A stretch of 64,000 nt of DNA from a virus: IMG/VR virus record IMGVR_UViG_3300045988_117710, one strand, 5' to 3'. Below are positions 4,069 to 64,000 of this stretch, one piece after another. The position numbers and the translations under genes are program-made. The notes under the pieces were generated by a model. The model ran no database searches, was not told where the DNA came from, and was given only the letters and a program-made list of their open reading frames with translations. The stretch's first letter is position 1; every line of letters begins with the position of its first letter.

Positions 4069-7000
4069 ATGGCAATTTATAAGTCAAATATTTTACAAGC
4101 CACTGGTGCTGAAAGAATAACTGTTGCTGATGTAGATAGTGTTTATCTTGAACCTGGTTTACATTTCTTACCTGAAGTCTATACTGTAGTTATAGATGGT
4201 TTGAATAAAGATGTAGCTGTTGAGGGTTCTTCAAAGTTCACTTATGATGCTTGGGCAGTTATTTGTACTAATTCAAACAAAGCCGAACGTGGTGGTTATA
4301 CATCTTCAAGAATTCAGATTTGGATTCCAGTAGGTAATCGTGATAATAGCTCTCCTTACTATTTATCTGATACTAAGAACTATTTCTTTATAAGAATGAG
4401 AAATGGTGATTTACCTGGTGATGGTTGGGGTAGTTTTAGATTATTTGCTAGTGGTGAATCAGTTTCCTATGTAGGTACTGAAGAAGGTTTCTATTTAGTA
4501 GATAATAAAGACTTTAGATATCCTGTTATCCAATCTGATAATAGTAAGGCAGATAAAGTTTCTACTATTGTGGAAACAACTTTTGGTGGTACTAAGTACA
4601 AAGCTGGTGAGATTATACCTACAAGTTCTAAGTTTATTAATGCTCAGATTTTAGGTGTAGATGCTTCTGGTACTCCTACTAGAGTTGCTTTAACTAATAA
4701 GAATGTAACTGCAACTGAAGGTTCTGGTTGTACTATTACTATTGATATGCCAGATTTTAGTTTTATATCTGGTGCTAATTATTCAAAGAATGACATTATT
4801 CCTACAAGTGATGTTAATATAAATGCTAAGGTTTTAGCTGTTGATGAGTTTGGTACTCCTACAGAGTTAGTTCTTACAGAGTCACCAACTACTGCTACTA
4901 ATGGTTCTGGTTGTACAGTAACTATTAATAATTCAATTGTTGAAGTAGATAGATTTGGAAATCTTCGTGAGTCTAAACTTAAAGCATCTTTGATTGATTC
5001 TTACACATTTACTTATCAAGATTCTTATGTGTATGAACTTAATTTCGATGAATCTTATGATGAGTCTGAATTAGCTGCGGCTGGTTCTGATTATGGTTTT
5101 GGTTATACACCATTCTCATTTGAGAATTTTAATTATTCCTTAATTGATAAGTATACTGGTAAGGCAATTGAGAATGCTGAAGTTTCATTTAATACTTCTA
5201 AAGGTCCTTACATTCCTGCAGTTAATCCTGGTTCATTAATTTGGTATGGATTTGTTGATGTTAATGGTAAGGTTACTACAGAAGATGGTACAGGTTATAA
5301 GAATGGAGATAAGTTTACATTTGTTGTAGATGGTAATACTTATAATGGTACTGTTACTGATGCTTCTGCTCATCCTATTAAGATTTCTCATAATATTCCA
5401 TCAGGTCCTAGTGGAGCTCTTTGGAGTTTATCTGAAGGTGCTTATAGTACAACTAATACGAGTGGTACTGGTAAAGGTTTAAGAGTAATTATAACTCATT
5501 CAATTCCTGCACCTAATTATACAATTGATCCTAATCATGAGAATCCTGATATTCCAGATAAATGTTTAGTTTGGTCTGGGGTTAAGGCAATTACTAACGA
5601 GTCTATGACTAAGGTTGGTGTAATATTTATACCATTTACTATTTCATTTGACCAAACAATTAATGGTCAAATAACTCATATAGAAGAACATGGAACTGTT
5701 ACTGTTGTAGGTCTTTATGGTACTAAACCATATTGGATAGCTTCTAACTTTAATACAGTTTCATATAATACAACTTCTGCTGAGGGATGGGAAGTTGGTG
5801 ATGCATTTACAATTAATGTTTTAGGTGTTAAGTATCGTGGTCAAATTCTAGATACAACTACAGATCCTTATAACATTATTACTGATATTCCTCAAAGTTC
5901 TGACAAGAATATGACAGGACAATATATTGCAGTTTCTGATCCTGAAGATGCTGATAAGAAGAACCTAGTAGTTAATATTAACTCTGTTAACTCTCATACT
6001 TATAAGTTAGGTAATTCTTATGTTGATCCTCATGGTGGTTACGATCCTGCATTCTATTCTAACTCTCAAGTTGATATTCTATGTAATCAATTGAAGTTAC
6101 CAAATGGTACTGATTGGAATATTGTTGCTTATTCTGGAATTCATGATAATAGAGAGTTCAAAGAATTAGCAAGAACAACTACTATTAGTAATGATGCTAC
6201 TAAACGTTCTGATTATAAGATTCCAACTGAAGCTGCAATTGGTGATTGGGTAGAATCAAAGCTTGATAGTGATGTTGTTAAGAGTTTAGTTGCTGATTGG
6301 ACAGCAAGTGGTGAACAAATTCATTTAGTATTAAGTTCTGGTAAGGATGCTTCAGTTGTTACTGTTCCTTATGCAAGTTCAACTCAAGATGGTTTAATCA
6401 AGAAAGAGATGTATGACCAAATCAATCTTGACCATACTACTTTAGAGTCATTAAAAGGTTTAGATTCAATTGCTGCTAACTTAGGTAAGAAGAGTGAAAT
6501 TACACAAGCGAAGATGAATCAAGCTTGGGCTGCAGCTGGTAAGGGAAATCCTGTTGAAGGTAATAAGATTATCAATACATCTGAAGGTGATAACCAAGGT
6601 CACAACTGGATGTACTTAAATATGGGTGGAGTTGTTCAATGGTATGACATTGGTTCTGGTAATGTTGCAATTGCTACTAACTCAATGCAAGGTGTTGTAA
6701 TGGGAACTCCTCCAGATACTGAATATGATTACTTATCTGAAGTTGTTAAGCAAACTGGTTCAGCAGTTAACTTTATTAATGAAACTTTAACTACTTCATT
6801 AGCTGGTGCAACTGATTTTGAAGTTGTAGTTGACAATACAGATTCTGAAGGTAATATTACTGCTTATACTCTTAAGTATAAAAATGCAACTCCTCCTAGA
6901 GGTGTTCAAGAATTTATGCTTAGTGGTGTTTCATTTAAGAAGAATCATACAACTCCATTGTATTATACAAATGTTATAGTTTATGATTCGTCTGCTGCAA

Positions 7001-8296: not shown

Positions 8297-8305
8297 TCGT
8301 ATAAT
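8291..8305 (+). promoter_or_regulatory. promoter P1, TTTTTCGTATAAT type
   Basis: TCTTTTTCGTATAAT sits on the terminator U-tract. -10 at 8300-8305. Confidence 0.5.
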
Positions 8306-13104: not shown

Positions 13105-14499
13105 ATGTTAAAAACTAATCTTAACGAAAGTACTTTAATTAAAAAATATTCTCCAATTTTAGAATCAGTTGAAACTGGTTTAAAGAACTTAGGAAGAGAT
13201 GTTGCTGAATTCGATTCTTATAAGAAATATACTTTATCAAGAATCATGGAAAATGCTCAAAACTTAATTGAAACTTATTCAAAAAATAAGGCAATTATGG
13301 AAGCTGGTACTTTCCAAGTAAACAATGTTCCTGCTAAAAACCAATACTTAAAATTAACTGCTGCTGTTTATCCACAATTAGTAGCTGAAAATGTTGCTTC
13401 TGTTCAAGCAATGGAATATAAAGATGCAACTTGCTACTATTTAGGATATACTTATGGAGACAACAGAGGAGAAATCAAAGCTGGTGATTCTATAAGTACA
13501 GTATTCCAAGTTGGCCCAGATTCTGACAAATATGCTGCTTCTACAAGATATGCTTCTGAAGCTATCTCTCAAGAAGAATTAGTTGTTGAAGCTGGTGAAG
13601 CAAAACTTGCTTGGGGACCAGTTATTCCTGGATCAGTTGCTATCGATATTGATGGTACTGGTGCTACAATCGTAACTGATGACGGTTTAGGTGCATTATC
13701 TGACGGTGGTGCTATTGATTATGCTACTGGTACAATTACTGGTGCTACAATCGTTGAAGGTGCTAAAGCTGATTACAAACAAAATCTAGAATATGCCCCT
13801 GCTCAATTACCATCTGTTAGCTTAGATATTAAACCTTTATTCTTACATGCTAAACCTAAAGCATTAAGAACTGCTTATAGCTTAATTGGTGCATTCGATT
13901 TACAACAAACTCAAGGTTTAGATGCACAAAAATTATTAAGCAACTTAGCTACTGACGAATTAAGATGTGAAATCGATGGAGAAATCTTAAATGATATAGC
14001 TTCATTACCTGCTTCTGCTGCAGCTGGTGTAGTTACATGGAATATGGAAGTTCCATTTGGTATCAATAAGAAAGAACATTATGAAAGCTTATACTTCAAA
14101 ATTATTGAAGCTGGTTCAATCATCAAACAAGTTACTCGTAAATACGAAGGTAACAGAGTTATCGCTGGATTCAACGCTAACTATGTATTAAAAACTTTAG
14201 ATGAATTCAAAGCTGCTTCAACAAGAAATAGTGTAGGTCCTGTTGTTTCTGGTACTTTAGCTGGTGACTATACAGTTATCTATAACCCATATATTGGTGA
14301 AGATGATTTCACAGTATTATATCAAGGTCAAACATTTGACACAGCTTATATCTATGGTGTTTATATGCCTATCGTTTCTAGCCAATTCATTATGGATGAT
14401 ACTTTACTAGGACGTCAAGGATATGCTACAGAATACGCTAAATCATTTGTTAACCGTAAATATGTAGTTAAAGGTAAAATTACTCACAACGTTGCTTAA
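13105..14499 (+). CDS. putative major capsid (or major tail) protein
   Basis: 464 aa. Codon usage differs from neighbours (AAA/GAA/CAA/GCT-rich), consistent with high expression. Followed by a perfect 10-bp terminator. Confidence 0.4.
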   Translation: MLKTNLNESTLIKKYSPILESVETGLKNLGRDVAEFDSYKKYTLSRIMENAQNLIETYSKNKAIMEAGTFQVNNVPAKNQYLKLTAAVYPQLVAENVASVQAMEYKDATCYYLGYTYGDNRGEIKAGDSISTVFQVGPDSDKYAASTRYASEAISQEELVVEAGEAKLAWGPVIPGSVAIDIDGTGATIVTDDGLGALSDGGAIDYATGTITGATIVEGAKADYKQNLEYAPAQLPSVSLDIKPLFLHAKPKALRTAYSLIGAFDLQQTQGLDAQKLLSNLATDELRCEIDGEILNDIASLPASAAAGVVTWNMEVPFGINKKEHYESLYFKIIEAGSIIKQVTRKYEGNRVIAGFNANYVLKTLDEFKAASTRNSVGPVVSGTLAGDYTVIYNPYIGEDDFTVLYQGQTFDTAYIYGVYMPIVSSQFIMDDTLLGRQGYATEYAKSFVNRKYVVKGKITHNVA

Positions 14500-21167: not shown

Positions 21168-21200
21168 AAGTCAACAATATTGTTGACTTTTTCTTTTGTT
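21168..21200 (+). terminator. intrinsic terminator overlapping a downstream -35
   Basis: 9-bp stem AAGTCAACA/TGTTGACTT plus a T-tract. Confidence 0.7.
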
Positions 21201-21211
21201 TATCGTATAAT
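21183..21211 (+). promoter_or_regulatory. consensus sigma-A-type promoter TTGACT-N17-TATAAT for the PARP-like gene
   Basis: -35 at 21183-21188 lies in the 3' arm of the terminator hairpin. -10 at 21206-21211, preceded by CG. Confidence 0.65.
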
Positions 21212-21236
21212 AGAGACAATGAAAGAGGTAATGTTT

Positions 21237-22496
21237 ATGAAATTTGCAAAGTTAATTATGATTACTGAAGACAATCACAATAAAGAGTATATAATGACTC
21301 AGATTGATTCTTCAACATTTAAAGCTGAATGGGGTAGGGTTGGTTCTAGTTATCAATCAACTACTTATTCTATGTATGAGTGGGATAGTAAGTACAAATC
21401 TAAAGTTAAGAAAGGTTATAAGGATATATCAAATCTAGTTGAGAAGGTTACTGTAGATGGTGATGTTAAGACTTTACCTTATGACTATATTACTAATAAG
21501 TCTGTCAAGGATATTCTTAATAGATTGTATCAATATACTGATTCTTACTTAAAGGAAAACTACTTAGTTAATACTGTAGATGTTTCCAAAGCACAAATTG
21601 ATGAAGCTTATAAGATTATTGATGAGCTTGAAAGATTAGCTTATTCAAGACATTTAGATGTTCGTGAAGTTAATAGAAATTTAATTAAGTTATTTGAAAC
21701 AATTCCAAGACGTATGTCTAGAGTTAAAGATTATTTATGTGATGATTCTATTACTAAAGATAAGGTTGATGAAAAGATTCGTGCTGAGTTAGATATGCTT
21801 AAGACTATGTCAGATGCTGTTGAGTTAAGACTTAAGAAACAAGCTGCAAGTAAGAAGACTACTAAGGTTGAGAAGTTATCTGAATCTGAACAAAAGGATA
21901 AATTACTTGCTGATCTTGGATTAGTTGTAGAGGATGTAACTGATGAGGATATTAAGTTTATTAAGAAACAATTAGGTGAAAGTTCACACTTATTTAAGAA
22001 AGCTTGGAAGATTACTAATCCTGCTACTGAAAAGAGATTTAATGATTTAGTTGCTACTGATGATTTCAAAGGTAAGGAAGTTAAATATTATTGGCATGGT
22101 TCTAGAAATCAAAACTGGTATAATATTATTCAAACAGGATTAACTGCTAATCCTAAGGGTGTTAAGATTACTGGTAAGATGTTTGGTTATGGTATCTATT
22201 TTGCACCTAAAGCAAAGAAGAGTGTTAACTATACTTCTCTTGAAGGTTCTTATTGGGCAAGTGGTAATGATAAGAGTGGGTTCATGGCTTTATTCGAAGT
22301 TGCTATGGGTAATGTGTTAGATGTTTATGATCATCATTACTGGTGTTCAAGAACTAACAAAGAAGAGATGTGGAAACATAACAAGTGTCATACTTTATAT
22401 GCTCACGAAGGTAGAGGTTTCTTATACAATGATGAAGTTATTGCATATGATGATGCACAAGTTAATATTAAATATATAGTGGAGTTGAGTAGATAA
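21237..22496 (+). CDS. PARP-like ADP-ribosyltransferase (WGR domain plus PARP catalytic domain)
   Basis: WGRVGS motif near the N-terminus. C-terminus YWHGSRNQNW..TGKMFGYGIYFAPKAKKSVNY...LYNDEVIAYDDAQVNIKYIVEL is near-collinear with the PARP1 catalytic signature including the H-Y-E residues. Real ATG at 21237 (AAAGAGG RBS); the track ORF runs upstream through the promoter. Confidence 0.75.
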   Translation: MKFAKLIMITEDNHNKEYIMTQIDSSTFKAEWGRVGSSYQSTTYSMYEWDSKYKSKVKKGYKDISNLVEKVTVDGDVKTLPYDYITNKSVKDILNRLYQYTDSYLKENYLVNTVDVSKAQIDEAYKIIDELERLAYSRHLDVREVNRNLIKLFETIPRRMSRVKDYLCDDSITKDKVDEKIRAELDMLKTMSDAVELRLKKQAASKKTTKVEKLSESEQKDKLLADLGLVVEDVTDEDIKFIKKQLGESSHLFKKAWKITNPATEKRFNDLVATDDFKGKEVKYYWHGSRNQNWYNIIQTGLTANPKGVKITGKMFGYGIYFAPKAKKSVNYTSLEGSYWASGNDKSGFMALFEVAMGNVLDVYDHHYWCSRTNKEEMWKHNKCHTLYAHEGRGFLYNDEVIAYDDAQVNIKYIVELSR

Positions 22497-27658: not shown

Positions 27659-28606
27659 ATGGAACAAGAGATATTAAAAGAGTTAGGTGGTAAGTTGAAA
27701 TATCTTATTCGTAAGAAGAAATCATTTCAAGATATTTGTGAAGCTACTGGTCTTAAAGATTATGAGCTTTATGGTGTTGTTCAATTGCTTAAGCAACAAG
27801 GTGAACTTATTGATGTTGTTAATGGTGAGCTAGTTATTCTTAAAACTCCACCTAAGACTTCAGACATTTATACAGTCCCTACTATTTCTGAACATCTTAA
27901 GTTGTTGTTAATTAGTGATACTCATCTATGTAATAAATCTGATAGACTTGATATTCTTCGTTATCTATATGATAAGGCAGAGAAACAAGGTGTTAAGCAT
28001 GTTCTTCATTCTGGAGATTTTACTGATGGTTTATCTAATCGTCCTGAACAGATTTATGAACTTAAAGAACCATCTTATGAAGGTCAAGTTCAATATTGTG
28101 TAGATAAATATCCTAGGTTTAGTGGTAAGACTTATGTTATTCAAGGTAATCATGATGATTGGTGGTTTAAGAGATGTGGTTCAGAGATTGTTAAGGCAAT
28201 TGCTCAACAGAGAGATGATATTGTTTATCTAGGAGCTGATGTTGCTGATCTTCATATTGGTAAGCTTAAGTGTAGATTATTTCATGGTTCTGGCGGCTCT
28301 TCTTATGCAGTGTCTTATAAGATTCAGAAGTATTTAGATTCTATTCCTTTAGAAGAACGTCCTGATATTCTTCAAACAGGACATATTCATCGTGCTTTCT
28401 ATATGCATAATGTATCTACTCATTGTTTTCAAACAGCTTCTTTAGAAGATCCAACTCCATATAGTCGTTCTATGGGATTCCCTAATGATTTATCTTGTTG
28501 GTGGGTTGATGTTGATTTTGATAACAAGGGTAATCCTGTTATGATTCAACCTCAATTAGAAACTTTCCCTACTAAGAGATTAGTTAAATCTCGTTATAAG
28601 GGATAA
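27659..28606 (+). CDS. calcineurin-like metallophosphoesterase (SbcD/Mre11-like?) with an N-terminal wHTH-like region
   Basis: Motifs LISDTHL, HSGDFTDG and QGNHD. Confidence 0.55.
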   Translation: MEQEILKELGGKLKYLIRKKKSFQDICEATGLKDYELYGVVQLLKQQGELIDVVNGELVILKTPPKTSDIYTVPTISEHLKLLLISDTHLCNKSDRLDILRYLYDKAEKQGVKHVLHSGDFTDGLSNRPEQIYELKEPSYEGQVQYCVDKYPRFSGKTYVIQGNHDDWWFKRCGSEIVKAIAQQRDDIVYLGADVADLHIGKLKCRLFHGSGGSSYAVSYKIQKYLDSIPLEERPDILQTGHIHRAFYMHNVSTHCFQTASLEDPTPYSRSMGFPNDLSCWWVDVDFDNKGNPVMIQPQLETFPTKRLVKSRYKG

Positions 28607-45448: not shown

Positions 45449-45458
45449 GGTGGTTTTT

Positions 45459-46634
45459 ATGAAAGAGTTTGTTATTAAGAATGAACTTATGATGTTCATT
45501 GAGGAGCATGAGGATTGGAAGGTTCTATTAGCTTCTGATCCTTATAATCTAATTATTAAGGAAGATGAGGATTTTCCTAATGTTTATTTATTCAAGTATA
45601 ATATGTTAGAGTCTGATATGTATCAGAAGATTTCCCAAGAAGCGAGAGGTTTAATAGTTGAGGTTTCTGAAGTAGCTGGTAGACGTGTGACTAAGATGTT
45701 AGCACATTCTTTTGATAAGTTCTTTAACTATACTGAACCTCAAGGTGTTATGGTTCTAGAGAATTTCAATTGGGATAATTATAGTTTCCAAGAGAAGAGA
45801 GATGGATCTCTTATGAGATTGTGGTTCTATAAAGATAAGTGGGTTGTATCTAGTTCTGGTACTATTGATGCTCATAAAGCCAATATTCAGATTCCTAGTG
45901 TAGGTTATAATTCATTTGGTGATATGTTTGATGCTATTATTAAGAAGTATGATGTTGATTTTGATTCTTTAGATAAGGGGATAACTTATTCATTTGAGAT
46001 GACTTCACCAGACAATAAGATAGTAGTTGATTATGACTCTGATGAGCTTACTCTTATTGGTATGAGAGTTAACAAGTTGAATATGGAGCTTGATCCTATA
46101 TCTTTTAATCCATTTAAGGATATTAAGGTTGCTGAGAGATTTGAGTTTACTTCTCTTGATGATGCTTTATCTATTATTAATAATAGAACGAATTTTGAGG
46201 GCTTGGTTTTGGTTGATTCTAGTTTCAATCGTGTTAAGATTAAGACTGAGGAGTATTTAGCTTTAGCAAAGATGTCTGACATGGCAAGTTCTGATAGAGG
46301 TATCTTAAGGATGATTCTAGCTGGTACTATAGATGATGTTGCAAATCGATTACCACATTTACAACCACGAATTGATATCGTTAAGGGTTTTGTGGAATCA
46401 GAAATTACTAATATTAAGCAGTTGATTAGTACTGTTGATTTTACTCAAGATAGAAAGACAATTGCTCTATCAGTTAAGGATAGTCCTTATGCTAGGTTTG
46501 TATTTCCATTGATTTCTAATCCTGATCAGGATGTTATTGGAGCTTATTTTGTGTCTGATAACTTGGAGAAGATTTACAAATCTTATAAGGAAAGGTTCAA
46601 TTTAAGTGAAGAAACTGAAGAAGAAGTCATATAA
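45459..46634 (+). CDS. RNA ligase, T4 Rnl1 (RnlA)-like
   Basis: Nucleotidyltransferase motif I KRDGSL (T4 Rnl1 has KEDGSL). GAGGTGG RBS. Confidence 0.6.
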   Translation: MKEFVIKNELMMFIEEHEDWKVLLASDPYNLIIKEDEDFPNVYLFKYNMLESDMYQKISQEARGLIVEVSEVAGRRVTKMLAHSFDKFFNYTEPQGVMVLENFNWDNYSFQEKRDGSLMRLWFYKDKWVVSSSGTIDAHKANIQIPSVGYNSFGDMFDAIIKKYDVDFDSLDKGITYSFEMTSPDNKIVVDYDSDELTLIGMRVNKLNMELDPISFNPFKDIKVAERFEFTSLDDALSIINNRTNFEGLVLVDSSFNRVKIKTEEYLALAKMSDMASSDRGILRMILAGTIDDVANRLPHLQPRIDIVKGFVESEITNIKQLISTVDFTQDRKTIALSVKDSPYARFVFPLISNPDQDVIGAYFVSDNLEKIYKSYKERFNLSEETEEEVI

Positions 46635-49266: not shown

Positions 49267-50934
49267 ATGGTTAATGTTTTCTTTATTAGTGATTTACATC
49301 TTAATCATGGCAATATTATTGATTATTGTGATCGTCAGTTTAATAGTATTCAGGAGATGAATGATACTATTGTTAGGAATTGGAATAGTGTTGTAGGTCC
49401 AGATGATATAGTTTATTTTCTAGGTGATTTTGCTTTAGGTAGAGATGTAGATAAGGTTTATGAGGAGTATTCGAAGCTTCTGAATGGCACTATCTATTTC
49501 TTAAGAGGAAATCATGATAAGTCTAGATCTGTTGTATCTAGGTATTTTAATTTAATCGATACAGGTACGACTGTTTCTTATAATGATTCTCATTTCATTC
49601 TTTCCCATCATCCTTTATATGATTCAGAGATTCCTAAGGGATATGTTAATCTTCATGGTCATATTCACAATAACAAGTTGAGTAGGGTTTATGATTCTGG
49701 ATGTCATTTTAATGTTTCTGCTGATGTTACTGATTTCACACCATATTTCGTAAAGAATATTATAGATGATATTTCCTCTGGTTCTTTAGTTCCAAAGAGA
49801 ACTGGGGTTGATAGAGTTAGGAAGGATGATGGTAGTATGAGAAAGTTAGCTACAGTGCAAACTATTTTAAATGTTGAACCTATACCTGATGCTGATGCAA
49901 TTGAGGTTGTTACAGTTAAGGGTTGGAAGGTTGTTGTAAAGAAGGGTGAGTATCAAGTTGGTGATAAGGTAGTTTATTTCGAAATTGATTCACTTATTCC
50001 AAGAAGTTCAATAACAGAGTTTTTGATGGAAGATGAGTATATGTTGTCTGCTAGATTAAGAACTAGAAAATTAAGAGGTCAAGTATCTCAAGGTTTAGTT
50101 ATTTCTTTAGAAGATTCTCTTGTTATGGCTGAAGAGTTAAATGGTGCTGTTGAGTTATTTGATACTGATGATGGTACAGATGTTTCTGATTTACTTCATG
50201 TTGAGAAGTATGAACCACCTGTTACTTATGGTAACGAGGGTAGATGTGTTGCTTGGCCATTTACATTGACTAAAACTGATGAAGAGAGAATTCAAAATAT
50301 TCCTGAAGTTATTGATAAGTTGATCGAGAATGGAACTCATTTATGTATTTCAGTTAAGTTAGATGGTACTTCTATGACTGTAGTACATCAACCAGATGGT
50401 ATTCATGTAGCTGGTAGAAACAATGATTTTGATAAGACAGATGATTTTGCTTTCAATAATAAGTATTGGTCTACAGCTCGAAGATATGGTGTTACAGATG
50501 CTTTAGAAGAAGCCCATATAAATAATCCAGACAAATACTTTGCTGTTCAAGGTGAGTTAGTTGGTCCTGGTATTCAAGGTAATAAGATGAATTTATCAGA
50601 TTTGAATTATTATATCTTTAACTTATTTGTTTCTGAAGATGAATGCAGAACTTGGAAGAAGTTAGGTTATGAAGAATTAGTTCAGTTCTGTATTGATTAT
50701 GATCTTACTCATGTTCCTTATATTTATTCAGATTTCGAATTGAAGGCACATGGTTTAGTAGATGTTGATAGTATTCTTAAGTTTGCGGAAGGTACTTATA
50801 GAGATAATGCCGAGGGTTATTTCCCAAATGCTAAAGCCAATCAACAAAGAGAGGGGTTAGTGTTTAGAACTCTTGATCATCAATTCTCTTTTAAGGTTGT
50901 TAATAATATCTTCTTACTTAAGGGAGGAGAATAA
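49267..50934 (+). CDS. metallophosphoesterase fused to a nucleotidyltransferase-family (RNA/DNA) ligase domain
   Basis: N-terminal DLHLNHG, GDF and GNHD. C-terminal motif I KLDGTS. AAGGAGG RBS. Confidence 0.6.
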   Translation: MVNVFFISDLHLNHGNIIDYCDRQFNSIQEMNDTIVRNWNSVVGPDDIVYFLGDFALGRDVDKVYEEYSKLLNGTIYFLRGNHDKSRSVVSRYFNLIDTGTTVSYNDSHFILSHHPLYDSEIPKGYVNLHGHIHNNKLSRVYDSGCHFNVSADVTDFTPYFVKNIIDDISSGSLVPKRTGVDRVRKDDGSMRKLATVQTILNVEPIPDADAIEVVTVKGWKVVVKKGEYQVGDKVVYFEIDSLIPRSSITEFLMEDEYMLSARLRTRKLRGQVSQGLVISLEDSLVMAEELNGAVELFDTDDGTDVSDLLHVEKYEPPVTYGNEGRCVAWPFTLTKTDEERIQNIPEVIDKLIENGTHLCISVKLDGTSMTVVHQPDGIHVAGRNNDFDKTDDFAFNNKYWSTARRYGVTDALEEAHINNPDKYFAVQGELVGPGIQGNKMNLSDLNYYIFNLFVSEDECRTWKKLGYEELVQFCIDYDLTHVPYIYSDFELKAHGLVDVDSILKFAEGTYRDNAEGYFPNAKANQQREGLVFRTLDHQFSFKVVNNIFLLKGGE

Positions 50935-52279: not shown

Positions 52280-52528
52280 ATGTATTCTCATAATTATAAA
52301 GGTTTACCTTATAAGCAAAGTGTTAAGCGATTTGAGAAGGATTATCGTATTAGATATTGTTTGTATGGTAAGTATTCCAAATGGAGAACTGCTTCTGGGA
52401 AGAAGATTCGAGTTAAGGATTTAGATTATCACCATTTAATTAATATTGTTAATTATTTTGGGAATACAAAGATTCGAAATGATTATCCATTTGTTTGGTA
52501 TAGATATGTGAAAGAGGTGGTATTGTGA
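52280..52528 (+). CDS. small hypothetical protein
   Basis: Consensus promoter at 52233-52261. AGAGGTGAA RBS then ATG at 52280. Confidence 0.5.
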   Translation: MYSHNYKGLPYKQSVKRFEKDYRIRYCLYGKYSKWRTASGKKIRVKDLDYHHLINIVNYFGNTKIRNDYPFVWYRYVKEVVL

Positions 52529-53565
52529 AGAAGTTCACAGCAACAGTTTTAATGGGTTATCCTGGTTCTGGTAAGACTAGAGCAAGTTCTTATAAGCATT
52601 TAAGAACTAATGATGCTTTATATCTATCTTCTGATGATTTAAGAGTAGAGATGTTTGGTTTCAGAGATCAGGAGCATAATAAGGAGTTATTCGAAGAGTT
52701 ATATAAGAGAGCAATCAATTATTCTGATAAGGGAGATGTTTTAATTGATTCTACAGCTCTTACTAGAAAAGATAGATTGAGGGTTATTGCAAAGCTTGGT
52801 AAGTACTTCAATATGAGATTAGTAGTAGTTGTCAGACCTATTTGGGAGATTGTGGAGGAGAATCAAATCAGAAAGGTTTCTAAACCTGAAGAGTATATTC
52901 CTGAACCAATCTTTAAACAGATTCTTGGTAGATTTCAATTACCTACTTATGATGAGGGTTGGGATGAGATTAGTTTTTGTTTCAATTCTTCTATTGAAGA
53001 ACATAATGATCCTAATCTATTATTAAAATGTTTTTATGATTTAGATAAGGTTGAAGATATTGCACATGATAATCCACATCATCCAGAGTCAATCAAGGAA
53101 CATGTTAATTATGTTTTAGGTAAGGTTAAGGAAGAGACATCAAGTTTTGTATTAGAGTCTATTGCTTATTATCATGATTTAGGTAAATTTTATGTTATTC
53201 AGTATAATGAAGAGAAAGGATATTCTCAATGTATTGGTCATGCAGCTGTTTCAGCTTATATCTATTTGACAGATTTCTTGATTAGGGCTGTTTTAGATTC
53301 TATTGAGAAAGATGACTTTACTAATCCTTTTAGTAATTTAGAGTTTCTTTTAATTTATTATGGAGTGTTCTATCATGATTATCCTTATTCATTTACTGAT
53401 TTTGAAGATATGGTTAGTTCTTTAAGTAAACCTAGTAAACCATTGATTCATTTATTTAAAAATCTTAATGATGGTTTAGTTGGTATTTCTATGAGAGAGT
53501 TTACAAGAATGTTAATAGATTTTAATTGTTATGATAGAATGAGGGAAGGTGATTCAGATGAATGA
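52525..53565 (+). CDS. bifunctional P-loop polynucleotide-kinase-like domain plus HD phosphohydrolase domain
   Basis: Walker A VLMGYPGSGKT. C-terminal H..HD motif (HHPESIKEH ... YYHDLGK). Confidence 0.55.
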   Translation: MKKFTATVLMGYPGSGKTRASSYKHLRTNDALYLSSDDLRVEMFGFRDQEHNKELFEELYKRAINYSDKGDVLIDSTALTRKDRLRVIAKLGKYFNMRLVVVVRPIWEIVEENQIRKVSKPEEYIPEPIFKQILGRFQLPTYDEGWDEISFCFNSSIEEHNDPNLLLKCFYDLDKVEDIAHDNPHHPESIKEHVNYVLGKVKEETSSFVLESIAYYHDLGKFYVIQYNEEKGYSQCIGHAAVSAYIYLTDFLIRAVLDSIEKDDFTNPFSNLEFLLIYYGVFYHDYPYSFTDFEDMVSSLSKPSKPLIHLFKNLNDGLVGISMREFTRMLIDFNCYDRMREGDSDE

Positions 53566-60356: not shown

Positions 60357-60842
60357 ATGTATACGAATACTGAGATGTATCAACACGCGAAGTTAGAATT
60401 AGATAAGTTGTTAGAACTTGAGAGAAAGGATAATCTTAAACGTTCTGTAGAAGAGTTAGAGAACGAAGTTGCAATGTTTGATGGCAAGACTCCACAAGAG
60501 TTTATGAATGATGCTATTCTTAATGTTATTGCTTCTATCAATTCAGAAATTAATTCTTATAATTCTATGGATTATTTACTTAATACTGTTTATGATTTAG
60601 TTAAGTTTAGAAATCTTACACCACTTACTTTAGGAGATGAAGAGTGGGTTCATGTTTTAGATGATCCTGATAGAGGAAGTGTTTATCAGAATATTAGAAA
60701 CTTTGCAGTGTTTAAAGATGACAAGAATGGTGTATATCATTCTGATGGACAAGAGATGCTTAATATTGCTTGTGGTAAGTATCCAGAGTCTGGTGAAGTA
60801 ATGGAAGTTTATCAAGATAATGAAGGAGAGTCTAATGAGTAG
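60357..60842 (+). CDS. hypothetical acidic protein
   Basis: Promoter at 60330-60335, AGAAGGAGATGG RBS. Confidence 0.55.
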   Translation: MYTNTEMYQHAKLELDKLLELERKDNLKRSVEELENEVAMFDGKTPQEFMNDAILNVIASINSEINSYNSMDYLLNTVYDLVKFRNLTPLTLGDEEWVHVLDDPDRGSVYQNIRNFAVFKDDKNGVYHSDGQEMLNIACGKYPESGEVMEVYQDNEGESNE

Positions 60843-62241: not shown

Positions 62242-62459
62242 TGTTTGATGTTTCTAATGTTATAATAATGTTGTTATGTGTTTATTATCAAGAAGGTAAA
62301 AAGTTGGGTGAGATAGTAGATATTGGAGGAGCAAAGTTTAGGTTAGTTTTATCTGACCAACCTGTTGAGGAAGAACCTGGTGTTTCACTTTTCAGAATTG
62401 GTCCTGTGTCTACTATTGTTAAGTATTTCGAAGGATTGAATGATAATGGAGAAGTTTAA
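62241..62459 (+). CDS. small hypothetical protein
   Basis: GAAGAGGAGA RBS, ATGA stop/start overlap at 62241. Confidence 0.45.
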   Translation: MFDVSNVIIMLLCVYYQEGKKLGEIVDIGGAKFRLVLSDQPVEEEPGVSLFRIGPVSTIVKYFEGLNDNGEV

Positions 62460-63243
62460 GTTTTTTGTAGTTTCTGATGTTCATGGACATTACTCGGAAT
62501 TACGTAGAGCTCTTAAGAGAGCAGGATTTAAGGTTACTGAACCTAGTCATAAGTTGGTTGTGGTTGGTGATTCTTTCGATCGTGGTAGTGAGTCTTATGA
62601 ATTGTATAAGTGGCTTTCTAAACTTATTAAGAAGGGGAAAGCAATTGTGTTGCGAGGTAATCATACCTATTTCTTTGAGTCTGTTCTTAATAAGACAGAG
62701 CGAGGATTTAATTTCCAACACAATGGTTTAGATAAGACAATAGATAGTTTTATGCATCAGACTAGAGCATTTGAGATGTTTCTATTGTTTAATAATTTAG
62801 AGTATAATCAAGAGAGTTTTGATAAGTTTATTTCTTATGTTTCTGATTCTATTCAGAAGGAGTTTCCTACTATTAAGGAAGAAATTGAAGCTCTACCAGA
62901 TTATTTCGAGACTCAGAATTATATTTTTACTCATGGGATCATATTCAATAATCAGGATTTCAGAAATACTCCTACGAGTTATTGGAGGAAAGAGAATCAT
63001 TGGGCAAAGCCAGAAGATTATGCAACTGGTTATTGGAATATGACTGGGAAGACTATTGTTGTAGGTCATTTGGATACTGAAACTATTAAGAGAGCTTTGA
63101 AGAGAAGAGAGCATCTAGAGTTAGTTCAGGATAGGCCTTATCATACTTTGTATGTTAAACAGTTTGATACTTTCTTTTTGGATGGTTGTACTATTTTAAC
63201 AAAGAGAATAAATGTATTGATTGTTGAAGATTTTATGGTATAA
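62440..63243 (+). CDS. PPP-family Ser/Thr protein phosphatase (lambda-phosphatase / ApaH-like)
   Basis: FVVSDVHGH, VVVGDSFDRGSES (GDxxDRG) and LRGNHTYF (GNHE-like) motifs. Confidence 0.6.
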   Translation: MIMEKFKFFVVSDVHGHYSELRRALKRAGFKVTEPSHKLVVVGDSFDRGSESYELYKWLSKLIKKGKAIVLRGNHTYFFESVLNKTERGFNFQHNGLDKTIDSFMHQTRAFEMFLLFNNLEYNQESFDKFISYVSDSIQKEFPTIKEEIEALPDYFETQNYIFTHGIIFNNQDFRNTPTSYWRKENHWAKPEDYATGYWNMTGKTIVVGHLDTETIKRALKRREHLELVQDRPYHTLYVKQFDTFFLDGCTILTKRINVLIVEDFMV

Positions 63244-63250
63244 TGTAAAT

Positions 63251-63264
63251 ATACTTCGTATATA
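63251..63264 (+). promoter_or_regulatory. promoter, ATACTTCGTATAAT, driving an ORF-free transcript
   Basis: -10 at 63259-63264. Confidence 0.45.
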
Positions 63265-63270
63265 ATATTA

Positions 63271-63685
63271 GTAGCATATGTTAGTTCCTTTTTAGTCTTA
63301 CTGGTCAAGAACTTACTAACCGCTACAAACATTACCTCTTAATGTAGAAGCTACTGCAAAAGAATGTTCCTTGTAGCAAATGTTAGCTGGGTTTACCCGG
63401 CGTATCAGTCCTTCGGGACAAGAATTACTGAAGTCCTATTATTCAATGAGGGAAGTCTAATAGGTTGGAGCTATTGAGAGTTCTGTAATCTTTGGGTTAC
63501 ATTCCGCAAGACCTTATTCTACTAATTCTGTTTTTGATTCAGCAAATGAGTGTTCCTTTTATGGAAAATGAAATGGGTTCAATGTCATTACACTCCGCTG
63601 AAGTTTATTTTGAACTTCCTATTGGAAGATGCTTACAACTACATTACGAAGTATTGTTAAGGCACACTTAGGTGTGTCTTTTTCG
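63271..63685 (+). ncRNA. candidate structured non-coding RNA (~415 nt)
   Basis: Bounded by the promoter at 63259-63264 and the terminator at 63662-63685. No ORF of 60 aa or more. GC content is locally higher than the surroundings, with several hairpins such as GTCC-TTCG-GGAC. Confidence 0.35.
63662..63685 (+). terminator. terminator ending the candidate ncRNA
   Basis: GCACAC/GTGTGTC stem plus TTTTT. Confidence 0.5.
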
Positions 63686-63691
63686 TATAAT
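63676..63691 (+). promoter_or_regulatory. promoter, CTTTTTCGTATAAT
   Basis: -10 at 63686-63691. Confidence 0.45.
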
Positions 63692-63714
63692 AATTTAGAA
63701 AGGAATCTAAAGTG

Positions 63715-63743
63715 TTGACTTTTATTTTCCTTTATTATATAAT
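63715..63743 (+). promoter_or_regulatory. promoter TTGACT-N17-TATAAT
   Basis: -35 at 63715-63720, -10 at 63738-63743. Confidence 0.55.
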
Positions 63744-63770
63744 TAACTTATCATTAGAGAGGTGAATGTT

Positions 63771-64000
63771 ATGAGAAAGTTAATGAGCAATGAGGATTGT
63801 ACATACTTATATGATAGGGAGAGTAAGTTATTATATGTTTCTTTATCATTTGAGGATCTTACTAATTTAGATACTTGTGAGGATTATTTTGTGGTTGATG
63901 TTTATAACTATACTGATGGTCCTGATGCTATTTCTGAATTAGTACATTTTTGTAAGGGTTTGGATAGTGTTGAAGATAGATATGAGTCTATTAGAAGTGT
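63771..64000 (+). CDS. hypothetical protein, 3'-truncated at the window edge
   Basis: Consensus promoter at 63715-63743. AGAGAGGTGAA RBS then ATG at 63771. Open to the end of the window. Confidence 0.5.
   Translation, partial: MRKLMSNEDCTYLYDRESKLLYVSLSFEDLTNLDTCEDYFVVDVYNYTDGPDAISELVHFCKGLDSVEDRYESIRS

Follow-up and report, generated by a model that had tools for sequence, protein, structure and literature searches.

A phage-borne structured RNA built from three copies of one conserved module, a candidate new RNA family

Large structured RNAs of the GOLLD and ROOL classes occur in phages and prophages of Firmicutes, often near tRNA genes (PMC5737381, PMC12286853), and both assemble as homo-oligomers (PMC12286853). 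Phage K (Herelleviridae) makes two abundant noncoding RNAs (ncRNAs), lnc001 and lnc002, near its tRNA genes (PMC9241854), and the bacterial Y RNAs YrlA and YrlB sit among RNA-repair genes, including that of an RNA ligase, in the order rsr-yrlBA-rtcBA (PMC7790460). Here, we describe a structured RNA in the viral record IMGVR_UViG_3300045988_117710, of which a stretch of 64,000 nt was analysed (the window). The stand-alone unit (63271 to 63683, plus strand) is laid out as a promoter-like motif, about 410 nt without a conserved open reading frame (ORF), and an intrinsic terminator, and its RNA consists of three copies of one structural module, the middle copy bearing four extra hairpins. A structured ncRNA of about 415 nt had been proposed at this place in an original prediction, and it is supported by conservation in eight sequences, by the lack of a conserved ORF, and by compensatory changes on the plus strand; the triple repeat of one module and its recurrence in other phages were absent from that prediction. 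It is very probable that the unit is a genuine gene for a structured ncRNA and that its modular family is new, and we assign a probability of about 0.5 to the best explanation as a whole, namely, an ncRNA gene whose three modules act in trans as a scaffold or decoy.

Conservation, non-coding character, and secondary structure

The RNA unit occupies the gap between the gene of a calcineurin-type metallophosphatase (62440 to 63243, plus strand) and a gene that starts at 63771 and extends past the window end. A DNA similarity search of 50,697 phage records (GenBank) yielded no match to the DNA, and neither the phosphatase protein nor a 31-nt exact pattern was matched in IMG/VR; an exact protein look-up was likewise empty. 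The cultured-phage relatives of the phosphatase, from Enterococcus, Listeria, and Staphylococcus phages, are only 27 to 29% identical. A metagenomic protein search recovered phosphatase relatives at 58 to 99% identity, which lie on uncultivated contigs (L001 to L007, L158, L159, L164, and the partial L165). All recovered relatives whose contig passes the gene keep a gap of 390 to 585 nt after it. Seven distinct sequences besides the window keep the unit; the gaps align over their entire length, and nhmmer finds one RNA match per locus. More distant phosphatase relatives (39 to 41% identity) have no gap after the gene and no module. Two compositional features noted at the outset also hold: the GC content is raised (0.38 to 0.40 in the unit versus 0.27 to 0.35 in the flanks), and the excess of G over C is lost (GC skew of 0.02 to 0.10 versus 0.25 to 0.50 in the flanks).

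The claim that the segment has no ORF of 60 amino acids (aa) or more is true, if narrowly, as the longest one has 59 aa (TTG start, 63492 to 63671). ORF position and length vary among the relatives, and L164 has none of at least 25 aa. In the homolog alignment, 69 of the 87 indels are not multiples of three, substitutions are without 3-base periodicity, and the variable columns are spread evenly across the three codon positions. Coding is excluded because the ORFs are unconserved, the indels mostly break the frame, and codon periodicity is lacking; the unit is non-coding, and no conserved small protein, the finding which the original prediction had named as counting against it, is encoded by the relatives.

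RNAalifold on the first alignment gave compensatory changes in 15 of 34 predicted pairs. A nine-helix model was written by hand and counted on alignment A3. In this model, 93.9% of cells are paired, versus 31.6 to 48.6% when the 3' partners are slid by 1 to 3 columns, and compensatory changes on both sides, which it had been suggested to look for in related phages, occur in 25 of the 50 base pairs, versus 4 to 8 in the slid controls. Of 500 column shuffles, not one attains any of the five measures. The set is small, with eight distinct sequences of which three are closely alike, and the shuffle control ignores phylogeny; the slid controls, which the model clearly beats, are the fairer comparison. 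Chance is excluded for the structure, and the proof of it is the covariation; folding energy (z = -2.5 for the plus strand, -2.8 for the minus strand) does not discriminate between the strands and is weak evidence alone. The model contains many G-U pairs, which would be A-C mismatches on the opposite strand; the RNA is therefore read from the plus strand, in agreement with the promoter motif and the terminator.

The module and its occurrence in other phages

The module opens with helix P1 of about 5 bp, closing in ..GC/GC.., which is followed by an asymmetric internal loop in which AWAU on the 5' strand faces one C on the 3' strand. Helix P2 has 6 bp (GNNNGU/ACNNNC), whose four N pairs covary freely. 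The core is invariant; its 5' half is GUUCCU, its 3' half is UUAC, and the apical insert between them varies, with 24 to about 136 nt. The invariant nucleotides stand in or beside two internal loops on a stacked helix of 11 to 14 bp, and the layout is common to 26 module instances. The pattern GCANA-N5-GTTCCTT is found at 63274, 63356, and 63542 and elsewhere in the 64 kb just once with one mismatch (0.6 expected). At their 5' ends, modules 2 and 3 share 71% identity over 38 nt, suggesting duplication.

Module 1 (63271 to 63326; all features here are on the plus strand) is formed by P1 (63271 to 63275 with 63322 to 63326), the internal loop AUAU (63276 to 63279) opposite C 63321, P2 (63280 to 63285 with 63315 to 63320), and the core GUUCC (63284 to 63288) and UUAC (63313 to 63316) around an apical insert of 26 nt. 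Its helices, 1 and 2 of the model, are 100% paired, with compensatory changes in 5 pairs. L158, L159, and L165 have a plain hairpin in place of this 5'-most module; even within the clade, then, module number varies. Module 3 (63539 to 63601) has P1 at 63539 to 63543 with 63597 to 63601, the loop AAAU opposite C 63596, P2 at 63548 to 63553 with 63590 to 63595, and the core GUUCC (63552 to 63556) and UUAC (63588 to 63591) with an insert of 33 nt; compensatory changes are present in 7 of the 11 pairs of helices 8 and 9.

Module 2 is the expanded copy (63354 to 63510). Its P1 (helix 3; CUGC at 63354 to 63357 with GCA(A)G at 63506 to 63510) is invariant, the loop AAAA lies opposite C 63505, and P2 (helix 4; 63362 to 63367 with 63499 to 63504) is 100% paired with 3 of 6 pairs compensatory; the core GUUCC (63366 to 63370) and UUAC (63497 to 63500) encloses an insert of 128 nt that holds the hairpins Pa, Pb, Pc, and Pd and an invariant GUAAU element. 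A hairpin is present at the position of Pa (GCUGGG-UUUA-CCCGGC, 63386 to 63401) in all eight sequences, with differing stems in the homologs (GUCGGG/CUCGAC, GUUGGGA/UCCCAAC, GUCCGGU/AUCGGAC, GUUGGC/GCCGAC). The UUCG-loop hairpin Pb (GUCC-UUCG-GGAC, GTCCTTCGGGAC, 63408 to 63419), which had been put forward as one example of multiple hairpins in the segment, is likewise matched in 8/8 homologs by a hairpin of unrelated stem sequence; its tetraloops are UUCG, GAAA, GCAA, or AUAA, with other loops in L002, L005, and L159. Pa and Pb are not alignable by MAFFT, but they lie at the same place in the eight sequences. Pc (CCUAUUA ... UAAUAGG, 63435 to 63464; helix 6) has compensatory changes in 4 of 7 pairs and is 92.7% paired, and its loop is the conserved 16-nt UUCAAUGAGGGAAGUC; pairing of this loop with UUCCUU was considered and fails in L005 and L159. 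Pd (GGAGCU ... AGUUCU, 63467 to 63484; helix 7) is compensatory in 4 of 6 pairs and 91.1% paired, many of the pairs being G-U. The GUAAU ... (G)UUAC element (63485 to 63500) is invariant in the homologs and could form either a local hairpin or a pairing with AUUAC (63425 to 63429); both partners are invariant, which leaves covariation uninformative here.

Modules 1 and 2 are joined by a linker hairpin, ACAUUA-CCUCU-UAAUGU (63329 to 63345), which is found only in the window and its closer relatives L001, L002, and L005 and is swapped for other sequence in L003, L158, L159, and L164. Its loop, ACCUC, is anti-Shine-Dalgarno-like. A gene for a protein with a PARP catalytic domain (PF00644, E = 1.1e-21) lies at 21180 to 22496 of the window, and its probable ribosome-binding region AAGAGGTAATGT (21223 to 21234) is the exact reverse complement of 12 nt in this hairpin (loop ACCUCUU); the complementarity may be chance or a regulatory pairing. 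Downstream of module 3, a 3' tail (63602 to 63658), including the hairpin CUUCC-UAUU-GGAAG (63615 to 63628), is unconserved, nearly absent in L005, and expendable or variable. In L001, whose flanking protein is 99% identical, a 57-nt insertion lies inside this tail hairpin (L001 4630 to 4690).

A covariance model of the module, R1, comprises P1, the AWAU/C loop, P2 (NNNNGU/ACNNNN), and the GUUCCU...UUAC core. It scores true modules at 50 to 70 bits, with module 1 at 55.8 bits (E = 1.3e-11) and module 3 at 68 bits (E = 6.9e-15); module 2 fits every family feature by direct reading and covariation, and its 128-nt insert puts it beyond R1. The module-3 pattern was matched in three IMG/VR contigs of 174 to 192 kb from one metagenome. 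In L406 and L408, an RNA of about 150 nt has two modules in tandem, with a promoter-like sequence at one end and a terminator-like hairpin plus U run at the other, and L407 carries one module behind the TTCGTATAGTAATATTAG start that it has in common with the window RNA. L115 (IMGVR_UViG_3300045988_172743), which comes from the same 181-kb contig as L407, has a cluster of tmRNA and nine tRNA genes (ARAGORN) with two modules in it, one about 36 nt after tRNA-Leu(taa) and the other ending about 15 nt before the tmRNA. L407 is syntenic with positions 50.7 to 57.4 kb of the window at 40 to 77% amino acid identity; the 181-kb phage is therefore a relative of the window phage, and the one-module RNA of L407 sits in this syntenic neighbourhood. 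L406 has no detectable protein in common with the window. The module is the conserved unit and appears to be the functional one, and large phages, related or not, have between one and three copies of it. Two further observations concern the 181-kb relative: the one-module RNA of L407 (reverse strand, about 6740 to 6900 in reverse-complement coordinates) has an outer helix in which GGAGG at the 5' end pairs with AUCACCUCCUUUC, a string that equals the 3' end of Firmicute 16S rRNA (anti-Shine-Dalgarno), and the tmRNA tag of L115 is AKIKNFVAKVKSAFVAAPAVA.

In 323 kb, R1 recovered the insert-bearing module L115b, which was outside its training set, at E = 1.6e-6 and had no other match beyond the true modules. 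When run on 0.97 Mb of unrelated DNA from phages and metagenomes, it had no more than three hits, each of 18 bits and each in a locus retrieved through a piece of the motif. Pattern searches were less selective. The patterns GCAAATNNNTGTTCCTTT and CCNATTATTCAATGAG gave mostly chance matches, the first one bringing in L115; GGTTNG...GCAAGANC had none in viral or metagenome contigs and one chance match in Pedobacter; and the extra matches of the last relaxed module pattern were false positives in coding DNA. GTAAT...TTACA...GCAAGA had at least 120 matches per collection, all of them chance or a conserved marine-phage protein gene: in the form GTAAT-N8-TTACA-N4-GCAAGA, it matches a strongly conserved protein-coding stretch (...GNGTNYNPQEALNMFFQTGS...) in many marine phage contigs (L286 to L365 and metagenome loci) that is unrelated to the RNA. 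Listeria phage LIS04 has no module anywhere in its 181.6 kb.

Flanking signals and gene neighbourhood

The promoter-like element ahead of module 1 is TTCGTATATAAT (63255 to 63266, plus strand), a variant of the phage-wide motif TCGTATAAT, as judged by motif enrichment and intergenic placement. It includes the hexamers TATATA and TATAAT (63259 to 63264 and 63261 to 63266), so that the promoter hexamer originally placed at 63259 to 63264 is there, but the sequence around it is TTCGTATATAAT and not TTCGTATAAT. With up to one mismatch, TTCGTATAAT has 27 sites in the window, a number that none of 100 shuffles attains (expected, 7.0 ± 2.6), and TCGTATAAT is about fourfold enriched across the window, with sites, for instance, at 8297, 8357, 22622, 29078, 30983, 60327, 61637, and 63683. 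TCGTATA occurs at about 17 intergenic plus-strand sites, directly 5' of ribosome-binding sites and often straight after a terminator; TCGTATAAT usually follows a terminator and T-rich DNA and lies 10 to 30 nt ahead of the ribosome-binding site, with a TTGAC -35 box at only three of the roughly 17 sites. This placement makes TCGTATAAT promoter-like and suggests that it is the standard genome-wide promoter element of the phage; it may also mark a separate temporal class of promoters. At the 5' edge of the unit, TCGTATAT and further positions of the element are invariant in 8/8 homologs. From the spacing, transcription is predicted to start at about 63270 to 63271, the first base of module 1.

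The predicted transcript would end at the intrinsic terminator AAGGCACAC-UUAG-GUGUGUCUU followed by a U run (63659 to 63683, plus strand; hairpin 63659 to 63680). It abuts TTCGTATAAT at 63682 to 63691, as had been noted for a terminator hairpin running up to the next promoter, and a near-consensus sigma-A-type promoter follows at 63715 to 63743. Every homolog terminates in a hairpin and U run of a different sequence, directly after which the next gene has its own TTCGTAT promoter motif. In most homologs, the terminator 3' arm and U run (e.g., GUGUGUCUUUUU, AGUGUUCUUUUU) resemble the module 5' core GUGUUCCUUUU, the terminators compared being those of the window (63672 to 63683), L003, L005, L158, and L164; in L005, the resemblance sits in the 5' arm instead. 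Other terminators of the window are without this resemblance, and the terminator of the RNA may derive from a half-module.

In the relatives, the gene corresponding to that at 63771 encodes a 103-aa protein of no assigned family, without a match in Pfam or PHROG, and is followed by the gene of a 450-aa ATP-dependent ligase. The window also encodes RNA-repair-type proteins: a T4 Rnl1-type RNA ligase (45450 to 46634), a fusion of metallophosphoesterase, OB fold, and RNA ligase (49267 to 50934), and a P-loop kinase of the AAA_33/KTI12 families (52525 to 53565), presumably of the kind expected for a polynucleotide kinase. Two further metallophosphatase genes lie at 27659 to 28606 and 62440 to 63243, the latter being the one that precedes the RNA. 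Large phages use such a tool kit of RNA ligase, kinase, and phosphatase against attacks on tRNA (PMC7824862). Also encoded, 2.4 kb upstream of the RNA and among small genes of no assigned function, is a homolog of Tad3, an inhibitor of Thoeris (60357 to 60842; PF25185, E = 2.2e-20). The major capsid protein (13105 to 14499) is of the T4 Gp23 type (PF07068), and its nearest cultured counterparts are those of Listeria phage LIS04 (35% identity) and Bacillus phage SP-15 (Thornevirus; 35 to 36%). Because the capsid is only 35 to 36% identical to these, the window phage is a deep-branching large myovirus whose host is probably a Firmicute.

Possible functions and relation to known RNAs

The predicted transcripts of the window and L406 consist of modules only, the number of copies per transcript ranges from one to three, modules can lie beside tRNA and tmRNA genes, and insertions occur at a single site; together, these features point to the module itself as the product, and we infer that the RNA is most likely a stable molecule that works in trans. 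Each module copy would present the same surface of internal loop and core and dock one copy of one partner, most plausibly a protein, and the copy number would serve avidity or dosage, as in sponge or scaffold RNAs. The gene context suggests tRNA and RNA repair as the field of action, where the RNA, as a multivalent scaffold or decoy, would be linked to the phage functions for tRNA, tmRNA, and RNA repair. Multivalent docking in trans is itself a tentative proposal, held at somewhat less than even odds. Its most specific form appears rather improbable to us: an RNA effector for trapping a host protein whose substrate is tRNA, tmRNA, or damaged RNA (e.g., a tRNA-targeting defence nuclease) or for organising the RNA-repair enzymes of the phage.

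Several points weigh against the best explanation. Full-length sequences are few (eight distinct ones, three of which resemble one another closely), and no relative in culture was found. A Pfam scan of 51 window ORFs shows no RNA-binding or TROVE (Ro) domain; the link to tRNA and RNA repair is drawn from gene neighbourhood alone; and the L406 modules lie among genes of DNA metabolism (topoisomerase II, ThyX, NAD-ligase). The two helices of 16 short modules are 99.4% paired with 48 double-change cells, but the out-of-clade instances were picked with a pairing filter, and their pairing statistics are partly built in; independent support comes from the R1 match on L115b and from the homolog set. 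Finally, the order of promoter, structured RNA, terminator, and gene also fits a cis-acting leader.

As such a leader, the RNA would control read-through of its own terminator into the 103-aa gene and the ATP-dependent ligase gene, acting as a sensor of the riboswitch kind or, like HK022 put or EAR elements, through processive antitermination by modifying RNA polymerase. The order of elements is the same in the window, L406, and L407, the modules begin at or near the predicted transcript start, and terminators separate most gene cassettes, which would make antitermination useful to the phage; in the window and L002, the terminator 5' arm can pair weakly with the GUGUUCC strand of a module. This alternative pairing is weak, however, and no such pairing is conserved in the homologs, whose terminators lie at variable distances and are not homologous in sequence. 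Moreover, the downstream gene has a separate promoter motif right after the terminator in every homolog, two modules lie in the tRNA/tmRNA cluster without a terminator to control, and no riboswitch, EAR, or leader family of Rfam matches. The same pairing and promoter results speak against classing this RNA as a riboswitch or attenuator leader, and we regard the cis-acting explanation in general as unlikely, if still worth weighing.

A slightly weaker case can be made for the modules as processing or stabilising cassettes for a ribonuclease of the RNase III, Y, or P type, from host or phage, which would cut or protect neighbouring tRNAs, tmRNA, and mRNAs. With its two stacked helices and asymmetric internal loop, the module looks like the RNase III sites of phages such as T7 and SP82, and two modules directly flank a tRNA and the tmRNA. 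In the window and L406, however, the modules flank no cargo, and the invariant sequence core exceeds the needs of RNase III. R1 finds nothing in positions 1 to 50000 of SPO1, where we would expect the counterparts of the SP82 Bs-RNase III sites (best score, 10.8 bits; E = 2.4), which also argues against membership of that class. We therefore rate a processing role as improbable.

Two further possibilities are very unlikely, and neither has specific support. The three modules could be tandem small-molecule aptamers that serve as a sponge or sensor, e.g., for a nucleotide signal of host immunity, since the invariant nucleotides are concentrated in internal loops, as in tandem riboswitch aptamers, and a Tad3 homolog is encoded nearby; yet no known aptamer family in Rfam matches, Tad3 is tied to the RNA by proximity alone, and an expression platform is absent. 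A self-assembling RNA-only particle, like ROOL or GOLLD, is just as much of a long shot. The RNA is phage-borne, has its own promoter motif and terminator, and, in a relative, is a neighbour of tRNA genes; its conserved hairpin loops might also engage in kissing contacts. However, the ROOL and GOLLD models of Rfam do not match, the RNA is smaller and simpler, with one-module versions of about 150 nt, and no conserved complementary loop pairs were found. That the unit encodes a small protein is hardly credible: short ORFs (e.g., of 59 or 37 aa) are present in the window copy, but they are conserved in neither position, frame, nor length and are preceded by no Shine-Dalgarno sequence, and the RNA helices account for the compensatory changes.

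The window RNA would join a short list of orphan phage-borne structured RNAs. To our knowledge, few large well-folded RNAs are without an assigned job, and new biology has usually come to light with each further class. Its anatomy is unusually clear: a small module with an invariant core, present in one to three copies, that takes large insertions at one site. The module is found in two or more groups of large phages, probably of Firmicutes, whose gene sets are T4-type or Thornevirus-like, and its neighbours, genes of tRNAs and tmRNA and of RNA ligase, kinase, and phosphatase, point to the contest over the translation apparatus during infection, in which we know so far only of protein and tRNA players. 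If the effector proposal is true, phages would have multiplied and moved around their genomes a gene for an RNA anti-defence factor or repair cofactor; if the function is an ordinary one (e.g., a processing signal), the module would still be a new family of Rfam grade. At 55 to 65 nt, it is short enough for direct biochemistry, and R1 can be used for annotating it in viromes.

Among known RNA classes, Rfam 15 (4227 models) gave 0 matches over the whole window at gathering thresholds, the scan that the original prediction had proposed, and, at E values of up to 10, only six chance-level hits on 63100 to 63800 (22 bits or less against thresholds of 39 to 80). ARAGORN, which finds nine tRNAs and the tmRNA in L115 as a control, detects no tRNA or tmRNA in the window, L001, or L002. 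The earlier failure to fit tRNA, tmRNA, or RNase P signatures by eye is thus confirmed, no RNase P model of Rfam being matched either. The string GAGGGAAGUC in the Pc loop resembles what we take to be RNase P CR-I, but it lies in a hairpin loop, and its would-be partner GCUUACAAC is in the non-conserved tail and absent in L005. A type III antitoxin (ToxI-like) was rejected: there is no tandem repeat, the module copies are 71 to 80% identical over 20 to 38 nt, and their stems covary. Motif-level candidates were also dismissed, namely, a T-loop (position 5 is U, not A), a kink-turn (the conserved G-A pairs are absent), and a mimic of the tRNA-Lys anticodon loop (CUUUUAU, with a closing stem in few copies only). 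The three-module RNA and its module thus appear to form a new RNA family; the defining feature of no known family was found in them.

The closest likenesses are therefore of context or of architecture. T4 species 1 and 2 RNAs (rnaC, rnaD) are small stable RNAs inside the tRNA cluster of a phage with a T4-type capsid, a placement comparable to that of the two modules in the 181-kb relative. Unlike the module, rnaC has a tRNA-like T arm, and the window RNA is a three-module transcript outside a tRNA cluster; in sequence and structure they are unrelated, R1, with filters off, giving 12 bits or less, at chance level, in T4 66000 to 76000. GOLLD and ROOL share a similar context without homology, as their covariance models do not match; they are RNAs of about 600 to 800 nt, pseudoknot-rich and single-copy, whereas the window RNA repeats one simple module. 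One of the phage K lncRNAs lies two genes from a gene for a NinI-like phosphatase, the family of the gene that precedes the window RNA. The two lncRNAs (635 and 1154 nt) have no defined structure, and neither R1 nor a motif search finds a module in either locus; they are analogous in place, not homologous. The Y RNAs in rsr-yrlBA-rtcBA are a precedent for ncRNAs placed within an operon for RNA repair. In Y RNAs, a conserved bulged helix in the closing stem is the docking site of a protein and the apical part varies, a layout that recalls the modules, but the window RNA has other conserved nucleotides, no tRNA-like domain, and no match to the Y RNA or YrlA models of Rfam, and a Ro-binding RNA was rejected on this ground and on the lack of a TROVE domain among the 51 window ORFs scanned. 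Although the window RNA has no GGA hairpin loops on the plus strand and its units are two-helix modules of 55 to 170 nt, sponge RNAs of the CsrB/RsmZ type, which carry several copies of one short structured binding unit per transcript, would be the model for the proposed docking.

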